A stretch of DNA of 64,000 nucleotides from an uncultured delta proteobacterium (lineage in GTDB: Bacteria > Desulfobacterota > Desulfobacteria > Desulfobacterales > JAHEIW01). The position numbers were made by a program, and so were the translations under genes. This document shows, one piece after another, positions 7,509 to 43,696 of this stretch. The DNA lies in the NCBI GenBank assembly GCA_963706575.1, contig CAVPNL010000003.1:320001-384000 (forward strand), given 5' to 3'. Under the pieces are notes generated by a model. The model was not told the origin of the DNA, did no database searches, and was given only the letters and a program-made list of their open reading frames with translations. The stretch's first letter is position 1. Each line of letters starts with the position of its first letter.

Positions 7509-8060
7509 TTCATTCGGTTTCGTTTTCAGTAAAGCTTTCGGGTAACACAACTCTATTTAGACTTATTCCAGTGTGAGGTCAACACAAACTGAGATTAGCA
7601 CGGCATTCGAAAAAGTCATAATATCATACCAATCAGACTCAAATTTCTAGGGTTCAAAAGGCTGGAATCACTTGCAATAACATGAAAGTTGTGTTTTGCA
7701 CCGATTCTTGCAATATTTTTTTGATATTCAAATCCAAAACTCAAAAGATTTCCAAAAAGCACACATAAAATATGTAGTGTTCTGCCATTTTCGGATTGAG
7801 TTACAGATTGCGCATGACAAATCCATAATTTTTTAGCAGCTCGTTTTGTTTGCCTTAGTTTTAAATCTGTGAGGGCTTAAATTTTGTTGGATGTGCTAAC
7901 GCAATATGAAATTTTGGGGTTTTGTAGATTAGGTTTAAATCAGAGGAAATTTTACTGAACTGAAACTTGGGATATCCCGCTAGAAAAACAAATATCAGGT
8001 TGCCGGTGAATATCAAAGCAGGGGGTTGCAAGGTATGATTATCGGGAAAAAGAGTCAACT

Positions 8061-8843
8061 TTAGGCACTGATCTTAGGGGCCTTGGGTCGCAGGAGCGCT
8101 TCAACCACATTGCGCACATATTGCTCGTCGGAAATTCCATCGATGGCTTCTTGCGGAAAGCTTACAATGCTTTTAAAATACCCACTGAGCTCATGGAAAA
8201 GCTCAACCCGGGCCCGGGGCTCCAGGTCATTGCGTCGCACGATTGACTCAACCGCAATCTGGGCTTCTAAAGGAGTGACATTTTGTCTGAGGCGGGCTTC
8301 TATATGAGGATATTCACGAAAGGAATTGTATTTGCTCTCTAAAAGTTGGTTCAAGTCCGGTTCGGCAATACGAGGACTCCAGACCACAACGGTATTGGCC
8401 GCAAAATCTCCCAAACGTTGAGATCGCCTGTTAAACAGACATGCCAGACCACCAACCAGATACAGCGCCGGCAAACTGTCGACAAATCTTAACAGATTCC
8501 GGATGACAATCTGGCTGAATTGAAGCCGCAACCCCTGTTCATCCATAACTCTGAGCCGCAAAAGCCGTTTGCCCAGTGTTTGTCCCTGCCAGTACCACTC
8601 TGTTAAAATGCCGTAGCCGATCGAAACAACAAAAAAACCAATAATATTGGCCGCCATTGCCAGATCACGGCTGAGAATACCCAGGAGTCCGAAAACCACA
8701 TTTAATATCGTAATAAGGGCAAAAATCGTCCCCAGATCGATTGCCCAGGCCAAAAAGCGCGTAATCGGCCCCGCCAGCAGCAGCGAAAATTCGATCCCCT
8801 CAGGGGTTTTAATGATGAGTGTATTTGTTTTGCTGGATAACAT
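8061..8843 (-). CDS. RDD family membrane protein
   Basis: TPEGIEF, RFLAWAID, GQTLGKR, RNLLRFVD and QRLGD motifs. Confidence 0.85.
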   Translation of the reverse strand: MLSSKTNTLIIKTPEGIEFSLLLAGPITRFLAWAIDLGTIFALITILNVVFGLLGILSRDLAMAANIIGFFVVSIGYGILTEWYWQGQTLGKRLLRLRVMDEQGLRLQFSQIVIRNLLRFVDSLPALYLVGGLACLFNRRSQRLGDFAANTVVVWSPRIAEPDLNQLLESKYNSFREYPHIEARLRQNVTPLEAQIAVESIVRRNDLEPRARVELFHELSGYFKSIVSFPQEAIDGISDEQYVRNVVEALLRPKAPKISA

Positions 8844-8853
8844 AGTACGTAAT

Positions 8854-9000
8854 TAAATGAGCTAAAATTCAAAATGCCTAAAATGAGCTAAAATTATTGT
8901 CGAGTTCATTTTTCAACGTCTTTGCCAAATTTCTTATGATTCATAAATTTCTCTTTTAAATTTTAGGCATTTTAGATCACTTTAGATCATTTTAGGCATT
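8854..9000. repeat. inverted tandem-array cassette A, enclosing a 48 bp remnant of the four-helix-bundle gene 5' end
   Basis: ATGAGCTAAA/ATGCCTAAA arrays at 8854-8896 and (inverted) 8959-9000; 8897-8944 is 42/48 identical to 10381-10428. Confidence 0.9.
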
Positions 9001-9996
9001 TATTCTTTCTGACTTTCTCCCGGCTATTCCCAGAAACAACGCCAGAATAATCAATTCAAAAACGCCGAATCCAATTTTGACTGCGTACGGCATGACCGGT
9101 TCATGATATTGTGAAAAAAAGGCTTCAATAATTCCAGCCCACACCAGCATCAGGGCCACACCGGATATGAGCGTCACCAGATCATTGGATATTTTGCGCA
9201 GCCGCATTCGCAAAGATATCGGTTTGCCCCATCCGATAAGCGCCCCGGCCAGTACAATGCCGGCCTGCCCGGCAAGCAAAATGGCCGGAATTTCAACAGC
9301 CCCGTGTGGCAGCAACCAGCCTAAGAGGAAGGACGTCTCCCCCGCCATCACATAATCGACGGCCACCGCCCCTAAAATGATGCCATTATAAAATAGCATG
9401 ACCAATGTGCCGATCCCCCAGGTCAGACCCAGCGCCAGCGTTAGAATGGCCACTTTGGTATTGTGCGTCATCAAAAATGAAGAAAAGGTAGTTTTGGCGC
9501 CTTTGAGACGATCGGCATTGACGTCTTCTTCCTTTTTTACCCGCTCAGACGGATCCCCCTGTAGATGAGAAAACGGAAGCAGTATCTGTTTTGTATTCGA
9601 ATCCACGATAACCGTAAATCCGCCAAAGGTTGCGCCCACCCCGATCGCCAGCAGGCAGATCCAGAATGCGCGAATATGTTTGCGGAACGTCTGCGGAAAG
9701 GTAGTGAAAAACCAGTGCAACGGCCGGAGCCGGTGAGGCTTTTCGCGGGTTTCATGGATCTCCCCAAAGGCTCTGCCCACCAAGGCTTCAAGATAAAGTC
9801 GGGTGTTCGGCTCAGCAGAAAAAGTCGAAATTTTAGCCAGACCTGCCGAGGCCCGTTGATAAAGATAATGAAAGCGTTCAAGCTGCCCGAGCGTTAGCGT
9901 GACCTCCGGTTTTTTTTCAAGCCGGTCTAAAACCGCTTCCAACTCCGACCAGCAGGGTCGCTCCTCGGTGATGAATTTTGGTAGATCGATTATCAT
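8992..9996 (-). CDS. SpoIIM/DUF95 family membrane protein
   Basis: THNTKVA, NGIILGA, LLPHGAVEIPA and AGIIEAFFS motifs; lies in the RDD-DUF58-MoxR cluster. Confidence 0.85.
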   Translation of the reverse strand: MIIDLPKFITEERPCWSELEAVLDRLEKKPEVTLTLGQLERFHYLYQRASAGLAKISTFSAEPNTRLYLEALVGRAFGEIHETREKPHRLRPLHWFFTTFPQTFRKHIRAFWICLLAIGVGATFGGFTVIVDSNTKQILLPFSHLQGDPSERVKKEEDVNADRLKGAKTTFSSFLMTHNTKVAILTLALGLTWGIGTLVMLFYNGIILGAVAVDYVMAGETSFLLGWLLPHGAVEIPAILLAGQAGIVLAGALIGWGKPISLRMRLRKISNDLVTLISGVALMLVWAGIIEAFFSQYHEPVMPYAVKIGFGVFELIILALFLGIAGRKSERINA

Positions 9997-10004
9997 ATCG
10001 CTAA

Positions 10005-10483
10005 TAAATGAGCTAAAATTTAAAATGCCTAAAATGATCTAAAATTAAGGAAATATTTTATAGCGAGTATAAATGATTTACTTGCTTCCAATTGATGTAA
10101 AAAGAGCAAGTAGTTCGCTGCATTCATCATAATCGGCCTTTATTTCTTTCCATTTTAACCATTTTACTTCTGTAATTACTTCTAACCAGAATTGAGTTTC
10201 ACTTGACTCGCTTTCACATATTTTTATTTTATTTCTAAAATCCGCTTTGCTTCTTGCTCGATTGGCTTCGCGGTAATTAGCGCCAACTGAAGTTCCGGCT
10301 TTTGTAAGTTGATTTCTAACAACTCTTCCTTCTGGAGTATTGGGTAATTTGGCTGATATCTTAATTATTCTAACAGCAAATTGTCGGGTTCGTTTTTCAA
10401 GGTCTTTGGCAAATTTCTTACGACTCATGGGTTTTCTCTTAATTTTTAGGCATTTTAGCTCATTTTAGTTCATTTTAGGCATT
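10005..10483. repeat. inverted tandem-array cassette B, enclosing the intact four-helix-bundle gene
   Basis: Left array 10005-10047 is 41/43 identical to 8854-8896; inverted right array at 10441-10483. Confidence 0.9.
10078..10428 (-). CDS. four helix bundle protein (23S rRNA intervening-sequence protein / Avd-like)
   Basis: LEKRTRQFAVRI, QLTKAGTSVGANYREA, RSKADF and ESSETQFWL motifs; 116 aa. Confidence 0.9.
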   Translation of the reverse strand: MSRKKFAKDLEKRTRQFAVRIIKISAKLPNTPEGRVVRNQLTKAGTSVGANYREANRARSKADFRNKIKICESESSETQFWLEVITEVKWLKWKEIKADYDECSELLALFTSIGSK

Positions 10484-11864
10484 CTCTAATTATAAAACTT
10501 GTCTCCTCTTCAGACGAAAGATACTGTGAAACCATCTCCGAGCAGAGGTTTTCGGAATTCAACATGGCAAAACCCACACCGCGTCTTTGCAAAACTTTTT
10601 GGGTTTCCTGTATCCGCCGCCATACCATGTGCCCGCCCAGATCGTTGTAAATATCATTAACCGAAGAAACGGATTCAGAGGCAAAAAGCGGTTTCACGAC
10701 CGTGGGCTTGATCATGTTGACCAGCACCACATGGTTTCTTGAAATTAGATCGATGTGCCGTGTAAAACTATCCGCCAGAACCGGATCATCTAAATGGGTC
10801 AAGAAAACCAGCAAGGCCCGTCGACGGATCTTGGTACCGATAAATGTGAACAATTCAGCAAAATCTGGAGAAACCCGGTGCGGTTGCAAGGTGTAAAGCG
10901 CATCCCGGCAAACATCGAAATGCGCTTTGCCCATTTTGGCTTTTAAAAATGCACGTATCTTGTCGTCAAAGGTCAGCAAACCAAACAAATCCCCCTGCCT
11001 TTCCGCGGCCAGCGCCATGATCAGGGCAGCCGTAATAAATCGCTGCAGCACCGTGGTGAATTCGTCAGCATGCTTTTGTTCTTCCTCCCCATGGCTCGAC
11101 AGAGAGTTGCCCTCAGAAGATCTGGCGCTTAATCGCGAGGCATCGATGATGACATAGATTTGCTGGGTCCTCTCGATCTGATAAACTTTTGTAATCGGCA
11201 AGCCTCGCTTGGCGGTCGTCTTCCAGTGAATATCTTCAAAACTGTCACCGGGAAGGTATTCGCGGAGCTGCTCAAAATCCCGCCCTTTACCGATTTGCCG
11301 CTGGGCGTGAATCCCCAGTCCCCTGTTTAAAAAAAGCGCACTTAGATTTTTGCGCTCCTCAAAAAGATTGGGATAAACCCGAATCTCCATGTTAATCCGA
11401 AGCGCCGTGCGGACAGACCAGAATCCCCATAATGATGCGGTCTCCAGATAGCACCAATCAATCGGGTAACGTCCCTGTTTCAGGCCCTTGAGCAACCAGA
11501 CGATAGATGACAACGGATTATCTTCCGGCAGCTCGACGCTGAGCTCCACTGCCGGTGAATAAATTTCTTGCGGGAATGCCAAACCCAATCGAATGCGTTT
11601 GACCGCCCGTTTCTCGTTTTCAATCTGCAGATCAAAATGGCCCTGCCTGCCCTTTGAAATCCGAACAACCTCCGGCAGCATGACGCGTATACCCGCCAGC
11701 CGTCCCCGTGAACGATGAGCATCCATGATCACAACAGCCAGGATAGCCGCCGCCACAACGATGGTGGGCACAACCACAGCGTCAACCACCACCAGCAGCA
11801 GCGTAGCTGGCAGAAGGATCAGCCCTGCAAAAAAAAGAAGGCGGTATGTCGGCACCAATTTCAC
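10470..11864 (-). CDS. DUF58 (vWA-like) protein; C-terminus possibly frameshifted
   Basis: GRDFEQLREYLPGD, IHWKTTAK and IIDASRLS motifs; adjacent to MoxR. Confidence 0.85.
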   Translation of the reverse strand: MKLVPTYRLLFFAGLILLPATLLLVVVDAVVVPTIVVAAAILAVVIMDAHRSRGRLAGIRVMLPEVVRISKGRQGHFDLQIENEKRAVKRIRLGLAFPQEIYSPAVELSVELPEDNPLSSIVWLLKGLKQGRYPIDWCYLETASLWGFWSVRTALRINMEIRVYPNLFEERKNLSALFLNRGLGIHAQRQIGKGRDFEQLREYLPGDSFEDIHWKTTAKRGLPITKVYQIERTQQIYVIIDASRLSARSSEGNSLSSHGEEEQKHADEFTTVLQRFITAALIMALAAERQGDLFGLLTFDDKIRAFLKAKMGKAHFDVCRDALYTLQPHRVSPDFAELFTFIGTKIRRRALLVFLTHLDDPVLADSFTRHIDLISRNHVVLVNMIKPTVVKPLFASESVSSVNDIYNDLGGHMVWRRIQETQKVLQRRGVGFAMLNSENLCSEMVSQYLSSEEETSFIIRECLK

Positions 11865-11936
11865 TATTCGGTCACCTGACCTGTTTCAGTTTAACAGCTT
11901 TAATTCAGTGCAATAATCCAAGTCTTCGTAGGCAAC

Positions 11937-12046
11937 AAATGCCTAAAGTGAACTAAAATGAGCTAAAATGCCTAAAATTAAATAACGACTGAAATCCTTC
12001 CAAAATTTTAGGCACTTTAGGCATTTTAGTCATTTTAGGCACTTTT
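11937..12046. repeat. inverted tandem-array cassette C (empty, opposite orientation)
   Basis: Left array 11937-11980 is nearly the reverse complement of cassette B's right array; ~23 bp spacer; inverted array at 12004-12046. Confidence 0.88.
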
Positions 12047-12068
12047 TGAATATTGTAAAAAACTATCA

Positions 12069-13034
12069 TTAACGTGGGACGGCAATTTCCTTTAGAATAG
12101 ATTCAATGACCTCCCTGACCGTCAGTCCCTCGATTTCATATTCGGGCCGCAGAATCAGTCGATGTTCCAGCACCGGATAAGCCATTGTTTTGATATCATC
12201 GGGGGTAACAAAGTCCCGCCCGCTAATAGTTGCAAACGCCCGGCTGGAAAGCAGCAACGCCTGGGTGGCCCGCGGCCCGGCGCCGACCATAACGCTTTGA
12301 TGGTTACGGGTTTTACGTACGATGTCCACCACGTAAGCGACCAGGTCTTCCTTGACGAGAATCCCTTCCAGGGCCGTGCGCAGTTTGGGTAAGACCTCCG
12401 GTTTGATGATCTGCTGAACCGCACCACTGGCCAGCGTATCCTCAGGCGTGTCTTTACCCAGCATTCGTCGCGCGAGCGTGAGTTCCTCATCTTCGCCGGG
12501 AAGATCCATATTAATTTTAAGCATAAACCGATCTTTCTGGGCTTCGGGCAGCGGATAGGTGCCCTCATATTCGATCGGGTTTTGGGTGGCAAACACTGTA
12601 AAATTCGCGGGCAGCGGATGCGTCTCGCGGTCGATGGTGACCGTGCGTTCCTGCATGGCCTGCAATAGTGCCGATTGCGTTTTGGCCGGTGCCCGGTTGA
12701 TTTCATCCGCCAGCAAAAAGGAGCAAAAAACCGGGCCCTTTACCAGCGAAAATTCACTGGTCTGCAGGTTAAAGACATGCGTTCCGGTGATATCGGTCGG
12801 CATCAAATCCGGCGTAAATTGAATACGCGCGAAATCACATTGCATCACGTGCGCCAGGGTCCGCACCAGCAGGGTTTTCGCTATTCCGGGCACGCCTTCG
12901 ATGAGCGCATGCGTGCCGGTAAAAATCGCAATCAACGCCTGATCGACCACATGCTCGTAACCGATGATCACCTTGGCGACTTCCTGTTTCGTTTTTAAAA
13001 GGACCTTTTTTAAAATTTCCGTATTTTCATTCAT
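12069..13034 (-). CDS. MoxR family AAA+ ATPase
   Basis: EGVPGIAKT, RIQFTPDLMP, DEINRAPAKTQSALL and ATQNPIEYEGTYPLPEAQ motifs. Confidence 0.95.
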   Translation of the reverse strand: MNENTEILKKVLLKTKQEVAKVIIGYEHVVDQALIAIFTGTHALIEGVPGIAKTLLVRTLAHVMQCDFARIQFTPDLMPTDITGTHVFNLQTSEFSLVKGPVFCSFLLADEINRAPAKTQSALLQAMQERTVTIDRETHPLPANFTVFATQNPIEYEGTYPLPEAQKDRFMLKINMDLPGEDEELTLARRMLGKDTPEDTLASGAVQQIIKPEVLPKLRTALEGILVKEDLVAYVVDIVRKTRNHQSVMVGAGPRATQALLLSSRAFATISGRDFVTPDDIKTMAYPVLEHRLILRPEYEIEGLTVREVIESILKEIAVPR

Positions 13035-18199: not shown

Positions 18200-18333
18200 T
18201 ACTGGAGAGACGGAGTACTTAAGATTTCGGAATGCAGATTGCGGATTTCGTATTTCGAATGTGCGATAGGTTTGATATTTAAATCTAAAATCCGCAATCT
18301 AAAATCCGCAATTAATTTTGCTCCATTACTCCA
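18200..18333. repeat. nested inverted tandem-array cassettes
   Basis: Inner GATTTCG/GATTGCG heptamers inverted against AATCCGC/AATCTAA (18223-18313); outer tggagagacggagta...tgctccattactcca. Confidence 0.65.
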
Positions 18334-39146: not shown

Positions 39147-39304
39147 AATAATGGAATAATGGAATAGCGGAATGATGGAATAGTGGGTTCTTAAATAATA
39201 TCTATCACTTAAAGCTTTATCATCAAGCCGATATTTTGCCAGTTACCCAATCTTGCAGTATCCCAACACCCATTTTTCCAATATTCCAGCATTCCACCAT
39301 TCCA
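39147..39304. repeat. GGAATAAT-octamer inverted cassette
   Basis: aataatggaataatggaatagcggaatgatggaatagtgg...ccaatattccagcattccaccattcca. Confidence 0.75.
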
Positions 39305-43502: not shown

Positions 43503-43696
43503 TAGAACCCATCTCAAAAATAGGATTTTGGTTCAAGGTCGCGGCGGAGCCGAGCTTTCCAGCGTTGCTGGACTTCCCGCCTGATTAAATCCTCTTTGTG
43601 GGTCGTAAACCGCAGGCATACTGTTGTATGTTGAGGATTTAAAGCGAATCACCAACAAAGATATTGGACCAAAAGACATTTTTGAGACGGGTTCTA
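43503..43696. mobile_element. MITE-like element (194 bp)
   Basis: 19 bp terminal inverted repeats, 18/19 match (tagaacccatctcaaaaat); CTAG at both junctions; no ORF. Confidence 0.75.

Follow-up and report, generated by a model that had tools for sequence, protein, structure and literature searches.

Inverted tandem arrays around a four-helix-bundle gene at operon junctions: a likely selfish mini-cassette in an uncultured delta proteobacterium

Intervening sequences (IVS) of 23S rRNA that bear an open reading frame (ORF) are known in Coxiella burnetii and Leptospira (PMC4990558). The locus reported here lies in the window, a stretch of 64,000 nucleotides on contig CAVPNL010000003.1 of an uncultured delta proteobacterium, where three junctions of an operon of RDD, SpoIIM, DUF58 and MoxR genes (gaps A, B and C) each hold an inverted pair of short tandem arrays. 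It resembles ORF-bearing 23S rRNA IVS, but stands at operon junctions and is accompanied by REPIN-like shells. As the available text of PMC4990558 describes them, the IVS share with it the protein family and fold, complementary stem-forming ends (here in predicted folds), tandem short repeats just before the ORF, decay of the ORF by internal deletion, and a sporadic, laterally acquired distribution in which a small hairpin is replaced by a long one. Unlike the IVS, cassette B is not inserted in an rRNA helix, its gene is intact and under purifying selection, and there are more than 100 gene-less shells; the 23S gene of this genome lies elsewhere and has no A+T-rich insert (no 60-nt segment under 36% GC). 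In the openly accessible literature covered by our search, no account was found that connects PF05635 genes with inverted tandem arrays outside rRNA.

Other described systems share parts of this architecture. In REPINs and RAYTs, as far as the accessible part of PMC3116915 describes them, a gene is likewise flanked by its own repeats, many inverted-pair hairpins lie between genes and each gene has its own repeat type; yet RAYTs are HuH transposases and largely immobile, and REPs are palindromes rather than tandem arrays, whereas the B protein has no known catalytic site and the cassette itself appears to change place. The Avd protein of DGRs, described in the portions available of PMC6182149 and PMC10053308 as a positively charged pentamer that works with RNA and an enzyme, is similarly basic and of the same fold. 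Unlike a DGR, the locus includes no ORF for a reverse transcriptase between 3000 and 18000, in agreement with the earlier note on this DNA, and no template/variable repeat pair among the repeats of 8500-12500. Intergenic short tandem repeats that are patchy across phyla and have no known mover are familiar from cyanobacteria as STRR and SDR. The TAACTGA heptamer repeats of Beggiatoaceae are abundant intergenic arrays of the same kind, patchy and with no known mover, but the available text of PMC4679880 describes them as direct repeats and names neither a four-helix-bundle protein nor an S23 protein. Bacterial MITEs such as BrickBuilt are non-autonomous, intergenic and multi-copy, with tandem repeats within the element, and by the available account stem from transposase-bearing IS and have fixed terminal repeats and target duplications (PMC4596501). 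Here, in contrast, the tandem arrays form the termini, and the parent gene codes for no transposase.

Array pairs A, B and C were located where the earlier note had placed them (Table 1); its reading that A has nearly the same left array as B and retains the first codons of a B-type gene, interrupted by a stop (TGA), and that B holds an intact four-helix-bundle gene (PF05635, E 4.9e-19), was borne out. The A fragment is the sole gene fragment detected in the genome (E 1.8e-6), and the gene-upstream arm of A provides the stop codon of SpoIIM (8992-8994). Shell C has an interior of 26 nt without any gene piece. Since inverted tandem-array pairs far outnumber control pairings in a generic genome scan (148, against 3 with reversed-only and 2 with complemented-only partners) and RNA folding z-scores are negative (C -9.0, A -3.4, B -2.3), the array pairs are not due to chance. 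Rfam yields no match at gathering level over 8000-13000; three chance matches lie far below gathering. The earlier description of C as flipped did not survive: it was based on one arm, with 3 mismatches in 45, to which a shell on contig C9 that is unrelated shows just as good a match, and the other arm of C has more than 6 mismatches from the left arm of B. Judged on both arms, C is a generic shell and not a flipped B.

Table 1. Features of the three operon junctions and host genes (positions in the window).
Feature	Position	Strand	Remarks
RDD family host gene	8061..8843	-	
Cassette A gene-downstream arm	8854..8896	.	tandem 9-10-nt CTAAAAT-core units; 41/43 bases identical to B arm
Cassette A four-helix-bundle gene fragment (16 codons, stop at codon 13, remainder deleted)	8897..8944	-	42/48 nt identical to B
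Cassette A ribosome-binding spacer and gene-upstream arm	8945..9000	.	54/56 to L201 gap-A cassette
SpoIIM family host gene	8992..9996	-	
Cassette B gene-downstream arm	10005..10047	.	
Cassette B four-helix-bundle gene, intact, PF05635, S23p/Avd fold, 116 aa	10078..10428	-	
Cassette B ribosome-binding spacer and gene-upstream arm	10429..10483	.	
DUF58 host gene	10470..11864	-	one extra base near 3' end vs relatives
Shell C left arm	11938..11982	.	
Shell C interior, short, without gene or family core	11983..12003	.	
Shell C right arm	12004..12046	.	RNA hairpin -49 kcal/mol, z -9.0
MoxR AAA ATPase host gene	12069..13034	-	

The gene of cassette B has 36% GC, against 49-53% in four neighbouring host genes, and PF05635 is the only Pfam family matched in it. 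The fold of its product agrees with 2RLD (TM 0.84-0.87) and 2GSC (0.83), and with Avd at a TM-score of 0.73-0.76 (PDB 4DWL, 8UB7) and 12% identity, so that the assignment to the 23S rRNA intervening-sequence protein family, related to Avd, is upheld by both profile and fold. The protein is basic (25 K+R vs 15 D+E). The gene is under purifying selection, with dN/dS about 0.04-0.08 in comparison with the gap-B copies of relatives G019 and G021; at a site occupied for so long, such constraint is likewise compatible with a role in the host. Associations between protein residues and repeat bases, for example position 79 with a CTAGAGT variant, were seen in a comparison that ignores kinship, and so do not establish a residue-to-base code.

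Alignment of the operon across relatives, with the junction states labelled by eye, places empty sites at all three junctions. Gap B (24 genomes) holds a full cassette in 3, a deleted gene in 2, a shell or remnant in 8, another repeat family in 6, and is empty in 5; gap A (22 genomes) holds a full-length pseudogene in 1, a deleted gene in 2, a shell in 8, hybrid arms in 3, other sequence in 3, and is empty in 5; gap C (21 genomes) holds the A/B/C family in 4, other array families in 16, and is empty in 1. These states are scattered over the SpoIIM tree, in which many forks are weak, and the relatives G005 and L201, whose SpoIIM is 92-93% identical to that of this genome, show the reverse state, with A full-length and B deleted. 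The earlier view of A as a decayed copy stands in that its gene is internally deleted, but deletion within B does not by itself account for A. The spacer and upstream arm of A agree at 54/56 bases with the intact cassette that L201 has in gap A, and A goes back to a separate copy that formerly occupied this gap. A single segmental duplication is ruled out, as the flanking genes are single and the upstream arm of A comes from a different copy. Gene deletions have four distinct breakpoints, three of which show 3-5 nt of microhomology as judged by eye. Between G000 and G019 the gap-B gene differs at four-fold sites by 0.23 (CI 0.08-0.43; 41 A+T-rich sites) against 0.62 and 0.75 in the flanks, as would be expected of re-entry into one slot; for G000-G021, G019-G021 and G000-G005 the four-fold distance of the gene is similar to that of the flanks. 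The layers nested within gap C of L156 and within the L121 junction are consistent with insertion into older hairpins; at 4/6 other shell sites the family found in a relative is a different one. A putative 3-base target duplication fits gap B of this genome against the empty allele of L021 and does not fit the other filled alleles, the flanks being too diverged.

The arrays had been viewed locally in the earlier note, and A, B and C are indeed related; the family, however, is genome-wide. A search with the array consensus returns 111 inverted pairs, none of them inside an ORF, and B alone encloses a gene, its PF05635 gene being the only long interior between arms of the family (assembly contamination is 6.4%; 5/111 pairs, on contigs overlapping others, were dropped from the clustering, generic-scan and strand-folding analyses). 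Shells are rarer in divergent gaps (9/110 vs 577/2936, P 0.0008), and therefore most lie downstream of a gene end. Their typical interior matches the non-coding inner flanks of L057, a gene-bearing cassette. A separate, TA-flanked MITE contains 21 of the 111 shells, one of which has a clear empty site in three relatives; such carriage can explain the spread of those shells without the protein. No autonomous IS sharing the ends of the MITE was found, and A, B and C are without these ends. Shells that lie close together resemble one another no more than those far apart (P 0.15), and shells do not cluster (16 near pairs vs 11.4 expected, P 0.105); local hopping is therefore not general. Shell orientation shows no pattern with respect to GC skew, itself weak (15:12 and 11:7), and is independent of transcription, at 37 vs 29 in an alignment-based count that supersedes the 31 vs 16 of a cruder classifier, whereas gene-bearing cassettes in co-directional contexts lie with the operon in 55 cases and against it in 2 (Fisher P 7e-8). 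Overlapping contigs of the assembly contain no filled/empty pairs; one pair, 91% identical, carries different shells at one site. When the generic scan is restricted to interiors of at least 250 nt, all six array pairs hold a gene, of PF05635 (3) or of GxxExxY (3), the latter having the inverted-array layout in common with PF05635 cassettes. Each of the other PF05635 genes of the genome is flanked by repeats of a different unit, in clear inverted tandem arrays in 4/6 and in less regular repeats in 2/6; TGTTTAG, GGTATTG and TTGCGGA mark the arms of other subfamilies in this genome.

The association extends well beyond this genome. The B query alone matches 5,123 PF05635 clusters at E 1e-20 or better. 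Of 87 homolog loci whose flanks are complete, 69 have two or more inward-facing units on both sides, against 0/69 control windows, and 78 have at least one; an additional metagenome set has inward-facing arrays at 51/68 loci. By record titles the loci span Desulfobacterota, Planctomycetota, Bacteroidota, Calditrichota and others, and the downstream neighbours fall into 54 clusters among 78 loci. The repeat unit tracks the protein subfamily across phyla, and different subfamilies in one genome have different units. In a comparison that takes no account of kinship, array density is higher in the 8 congeners with a close gene than in the 13 without one, with medians of 27 and 6.6 matches per Mb (P 0.01). 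Even a profile search reveals no close gene in five relatives rich in shells (77-202 pattern matches), whose genomes are 84-95% complete. Each way in which the earlier note thought its reading might fail came out otherwise: junction states vary, the arrays go with the gene subfamily and the flanking genes are unduplicated.

Because there are more than 100 empty frames in this genome and relatives gain, lose and swap the element at the same spots, we lean towards an undescribed selfish element: the locus is likely to be a DNA mini-cassette in which inverted tandem arrays frame a single small four-helix-bundle gene. Such a cassette would come and go at gene junctions or be exchanged there for another, and internal deletion of its gene would turn it into a shell. 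The states of relatives and the arrays of homologs agree with the earlier proposal that array and gene are copied together as one unit, which decays from within until a MITE-like shell is left. The stated lack of a transposase is also supported, as the ends are not common to any transposase-bearing IS and the homolog cassettes carry a PF05635 gene too. We propose that the basic Avd-like protein, a predicted pentamer by likeness to 2RLD and 2GSC, recognises its own arrays in hairpin or single-stranded form and so serves as an adaptor that confers specificity. A borrowed enzyme would copy everything between and including the arms, and the target would often be the loop of a hairpin element that the junction already carries. 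Operon read-through would express the gene, and shells may spread in trans, some perhaps also as passengers of an ordinary MITE. No catalytic partner or moving enzyme of the cassette was found in this genome.

Spread at the level of RNA, as in an element like the rRNA IVS whose arms pair in the operon mRNA, whose stem is cut by RNase III and which uses, for instance, a borrowed reverse transcriptase as Avd does the DGR enzyme, seems to us unlikely. The arms do fold into long stems (family median -45 kcal/mol), genes for RNase III and for one reverse transcriptase are present in the genome, and shells avoid divergent gaps and mostly lie downstream of a gene end. In the Coxiella 23S IVS, by the available text of PMC4990558, tandem heptamers precede the S23p ORF and RNase III does the cutting. 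The stems, however, show no G-U vs A-C strand asymmetry, and the sense strand folds no better in shells (36 vs 39 of 75) or in gene cassettes (62 vs 68 of 131); the independence of shell orientation from transcription argues in the same direction. The sole reverse transcriptase match lies on contig C4 without a PF05635 gene beside it, and RNA-library contigs show only joints explicable by DNA variation. In these contigs, joints at arrays derive from other family members and are uninformative on excision.

Some array, whatever its family, stands at gap C in 20/21 genomes, which would suit hairpins selected by the host, as would the change of family at 4/6 other shell sites, the strong purifying selection on a gene at a fixed site and the translational role that PMC4679880, in its available text, proposes for intergenic heptamer repeats. 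The junction would then need a stem-loop for mRNA stability or translation tuning, the protein would be a domesticated repeat-binding regulator, and families would be swapped by strain recombination. We regard this as quite improbable, given that gap A is empty in 5/22 and gap B in 5/24 genomes, that the gene has repeatedly been deleted or inactivated, and that it has 54 neighbour types and crosses phyla. It is very unlikely, in our judgement, that the arrays are REP- or MITE-like repeats moved by known transposases (HuH/RAYT or that of the MITE), with the four-helix-bundle gene as captured cargo without a role. Although six Y1-transposase matches occur in the genome, two of them flanked by REP-like palindromes, none of the six has the A/B/C repeat unit in its inspected flanks; 21/111 shells do lie in the TA-flanked MITE, one with its clear empty site in three relatives, but A, B and C lack MITE ends. 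GxxExxY genes with an identical layout and shell-rich genomes without the gene would fit passive carriage, whereas units that track protein subfamilies across phyla, and differ between subfamilies in one genome, speak against it, and a dN/dS near 0.05 is not expected of passive cargo.

A wider reading, less likely than not, can be offered tentatively: bacteria may have a class of mobile elements that lack their own transposase, in which a ring-shaped, Avd-like protein would recognise the tandem arms of the cassette that encodes it and guide copying into junction hairpins, each subfamily having its own shells. Within such a class the rRNA IVS might occupy one niche, and the intergenic tandem repeats of 7-10 bases seen in many phyla might be what the class leaves behind; cassettes of GxxExxY nucleases could form a sister branch or supply the missing enzyme. 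Despite being very common, PF05635 proteins lack a known function; the locus offers a concrete candidate substrate, their own arrays. How rRNA IVS spread has been an open question for decades; with a full life cycle in close relatives and a candidate substrate, both this question and the function of PF05635 become directly testable. The locus also offers a candidate origin for abundant intergenic tandem repeats, one family of which reaches more than 100 copies in a single genome.

The operon carries, in the three gaps where the earlier note had placed them, inverted pairs of arms, each arm being a tandem array of 9-10-nt units with a CTAAAAT core. The details it had read from these cassettes also hold: the left arms of A and B match at 41/43 bases, B encloses an intact four-helix-bundle gene (PF05635, 116 aa), and A keeps the first 16 codons of that gene (42/48 nt identical), the 13th now being a stop. 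The B gene has a GC content of 36%, against 49-53% in its neighbours, and the predicted structure of its product (pLDDT 97) consists of four helices, with 2RLD and 2GSC as best matches and Avd, the DGR accessory protein, as a weaker one. In DUF58 one extra base near the 3' end, relative to relatives, shifts the final residues and displaces the stop into the B arm; one base at position 10515 is absent in two DNA runs, and the extra base may be an assembly error.

Locations of the cassettes and accompanying features (window positions, or contigs of the source genome, G000)
Feature	Location	Context
Cassette A	8854-9000	RDD/SpoIIM gap, minus-strand operon
Cassette B	10005-10483	SpoIIM/DUF58 gap, minus-strand operon
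Cassette C	11937-12046	DUF58/MoxR gap, minus-strand operon
Extra DUF58 base	10505-10520	
Other-unit inverted pairs	18222-18312; 39147-39304; 46739-46836	gene-less
Other-unit single arm	47371-47423	gene-less
MITE examples	43504-43695; C1:99579-99722	
Modified shell interiors	C6:453329; C8:143700; C4:178930	
GxxExxY genes (L164-L166)	C19:8547-9040; C6:266121-266578; C6:909603-910246	
Four-helix-bundle cassette (two contigs) or Y1 transposase (one)	C6:747695; C20:5976; C19:5817	junction L161
Reverse transcriptase gene	C4:301305-302598	

Alignment of the operon across relatives, proposed in the earlier note as a search for empty sites, found gap B empty in 5/24 genomes, gap A in 5/22 and gap C in 1/21. 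With junction states labelled by eye, gap B is full in 3 genomes, holds a deleted gene in 2, a shell (an inverted arm pair without the gene) or remnant in 8 and another family in 6, and the stop and start codons overlap in 4 of its 5 empty alleles. Gap A holds a full-length pseudogene in 1 genome, a deleted gene in 2, a shell in 8, hybrid arms in 3 and other contents in 3, while gap C holds the A/B/C family in 4 and other families in 16, with nested layers at locus L156. Counts for gaps A and B exclude L022 (partial), L026 (paralogous) and L027 (duplicate), and gap A is absent from L005 and L025. The arm-bounded unit undergoes gain, loss, deletion and replacement.

In the relative G005 and at locus L201 the same deletion is present at B, and A carries a full-length gene. 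Upstream of the start, A of G000 matches the intact A copy of L201 at 54/56 bases and A of G005 matches the B type at 54-55/56 (both ungapped), so A in G000 is the descendant of an older second copy, which was overwritten in G005; the coding piece of A is about equally near to B (42/48) and to A of L201 (40/48). The intact gene has a dN/dS near 0.04-0.08. In the comparison of G000 with the relative G019, its four-fold-site divergence of 0.23 lies below that of both flanks (0.62 and 0.75), which suggests re-entry; in three other genome pairs its divergence looks vertical. At L161, the junction upstream of a gene that we take from its N-terminal sequence to be mutL-like, two contigs carry a four-helix-bundle cassette and a third a REP-flanked Y1 transposase. 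Contigs C6/C9, C6/C20, C5/C10 and C16/C17/C21/C22 mutually overlap at 91-99.7% identity, so the bin is a mixture of close strains, and the L161 difference probably reflects different strains.

An assembly-wide search for the array consensus, also suggested earlier, returned 276 arrays of the A/B/C unit, 222 of them forming 111 inverted pairs; only B contains the gene and only A a fragment of it. By a simple ORF caller, 0/111 pairs are ORF-internal, and the 110 with genes on both sides occupy 79 co-directional, 22 convergent and 9 divergent gaps, the last being under-represented (P 0.0008). Most interiors measure 47-52 or 76-80 nt, and they share a core matching both non-coding inner flanks of the gene-bearing cassette L057; by this match the majority of shells seem to have arisen by deletion from the L057 subtype, not from B. 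Several kinds of small palindromic modules, some doubled, are inserted in shell interiors, and the window also holds gene-less arrays of other units (table). A separate MITE encloses 21/111 pairs, and the site of one such composite is empty in three relatives. The MITE has 16-base ends forming 92 end pairs, 56 with TA on both sides; its roughly 90 copies, often TA-flanked, carry these ends as terminal inverted repeats and mostly measure 144 or 192 bp. No autonomous IS bearing them was found in G000.

The linkage of gene and arms extends well beyond this operon. At least two inward-facing units stand on both sides in 69/87 homolog loci with full flanks, against 0/69 control windows; in a metagenome set the figure is 51/68. 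Downstream neighbours fall into 54 clusters in 78 loci, and the gene is co-directional with its neighbours at 55 of the 69 loci having both called (fully opposed at 2). Each of the six other distinct PF05635 genes in the genome is flanked by repeats of a different unit (4 clear, 2 less regular); protein subfamily and repeat unit are fixedly paired. A generic scan for inverted arrays found 148 pairs (controls, 3 and 2), and all six with interiors of at least 250 nt enclose a PF05635 (3) or GxxExxY (3) gene; several array families have no gene-bearing copy within the assembly. Each GxxExxY (PF13366) gene is enclosed by inverted tandem arrays of its own, whose units also form gene-less shells elsewhere in G000. 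On a single metagenome contig, two full cassettes (L224 and L225) occupy junctions 2.4 kb apart, with gene identity of 330/348 nt.

STRR and SDR repeats offer a further comparison, as do bacterial MITEs such as BrickBuilt (PMC4596501). The nearest known system is the ORF-bearing 23S rRNA intervening sequence, for which PMC4990558 describes excision by RNase III, ends complementary to each other, tandem heptamers preceding the S23p ORF and, in one strain, an internal deletion. The window cassette is built alike but lies at operon junctions rather than in rRNA, and is therefore not an intervening sequence. RAYT-REPIN systems, as far as PMC3116915 was available, have the same population structure, but the cassette family lacks their HuH enzyme. 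Abundant heptamer repeats between genes are described in PMC4679880, with no PF05635-type protein in the accessible parts. Avd forms a pentamer with a positive charge (PMC6182149) and is related to PF05635 (PMC10053308). A literature search limited to the main texts of open-access papers turned up no account of the cassette other than in rRNA.

The 5/111 pairs on contigs overlapping others were excluded from co-variation, folding and the generic scan. Within single elements one arm co-varies with the other, with a rho of 0.66 for 106 shells and 0.48 for 131 cassettes. The sense strand had no folding advantage in shells or gene cassettes, and shells showed no orientation bias (37 vs 29), which favours a DNA-level process, and RNA processing may also occur. 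Contigs assembled from sequencing runs yielded no evidence on excision. We propose that the PF05635 protein would bind its own arms and serve as adaptor for a putative separate enzyme, that older hairpins may be preferred landing sites of new elements, and that the gene would rely on operon read-through. A close homolog of the gene is absent from five shell-rich relatives, which argues against a strict need for it; congeners with a close gene have higher array density (P 0.01, kinship ignored). The only reverse transcriptase gene of G000, presumably group II intron-like from its N-terminal sequence, lies near two tandem Y1-family genes.

The cassette is real and, it seems, an unpublished variant of a known design, and its life cycle is well supported as a description. 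To that design the locus adds the complete life cycle, spread over neighbouring junctions that show the reciprocal states in close relatives; a family of more than 100 shells that can be traced to the flanks of cassettes; slot exchange among repeat families; partial hitch-hiking of shells on a MITE; and parallel GxxExxY cassettes.
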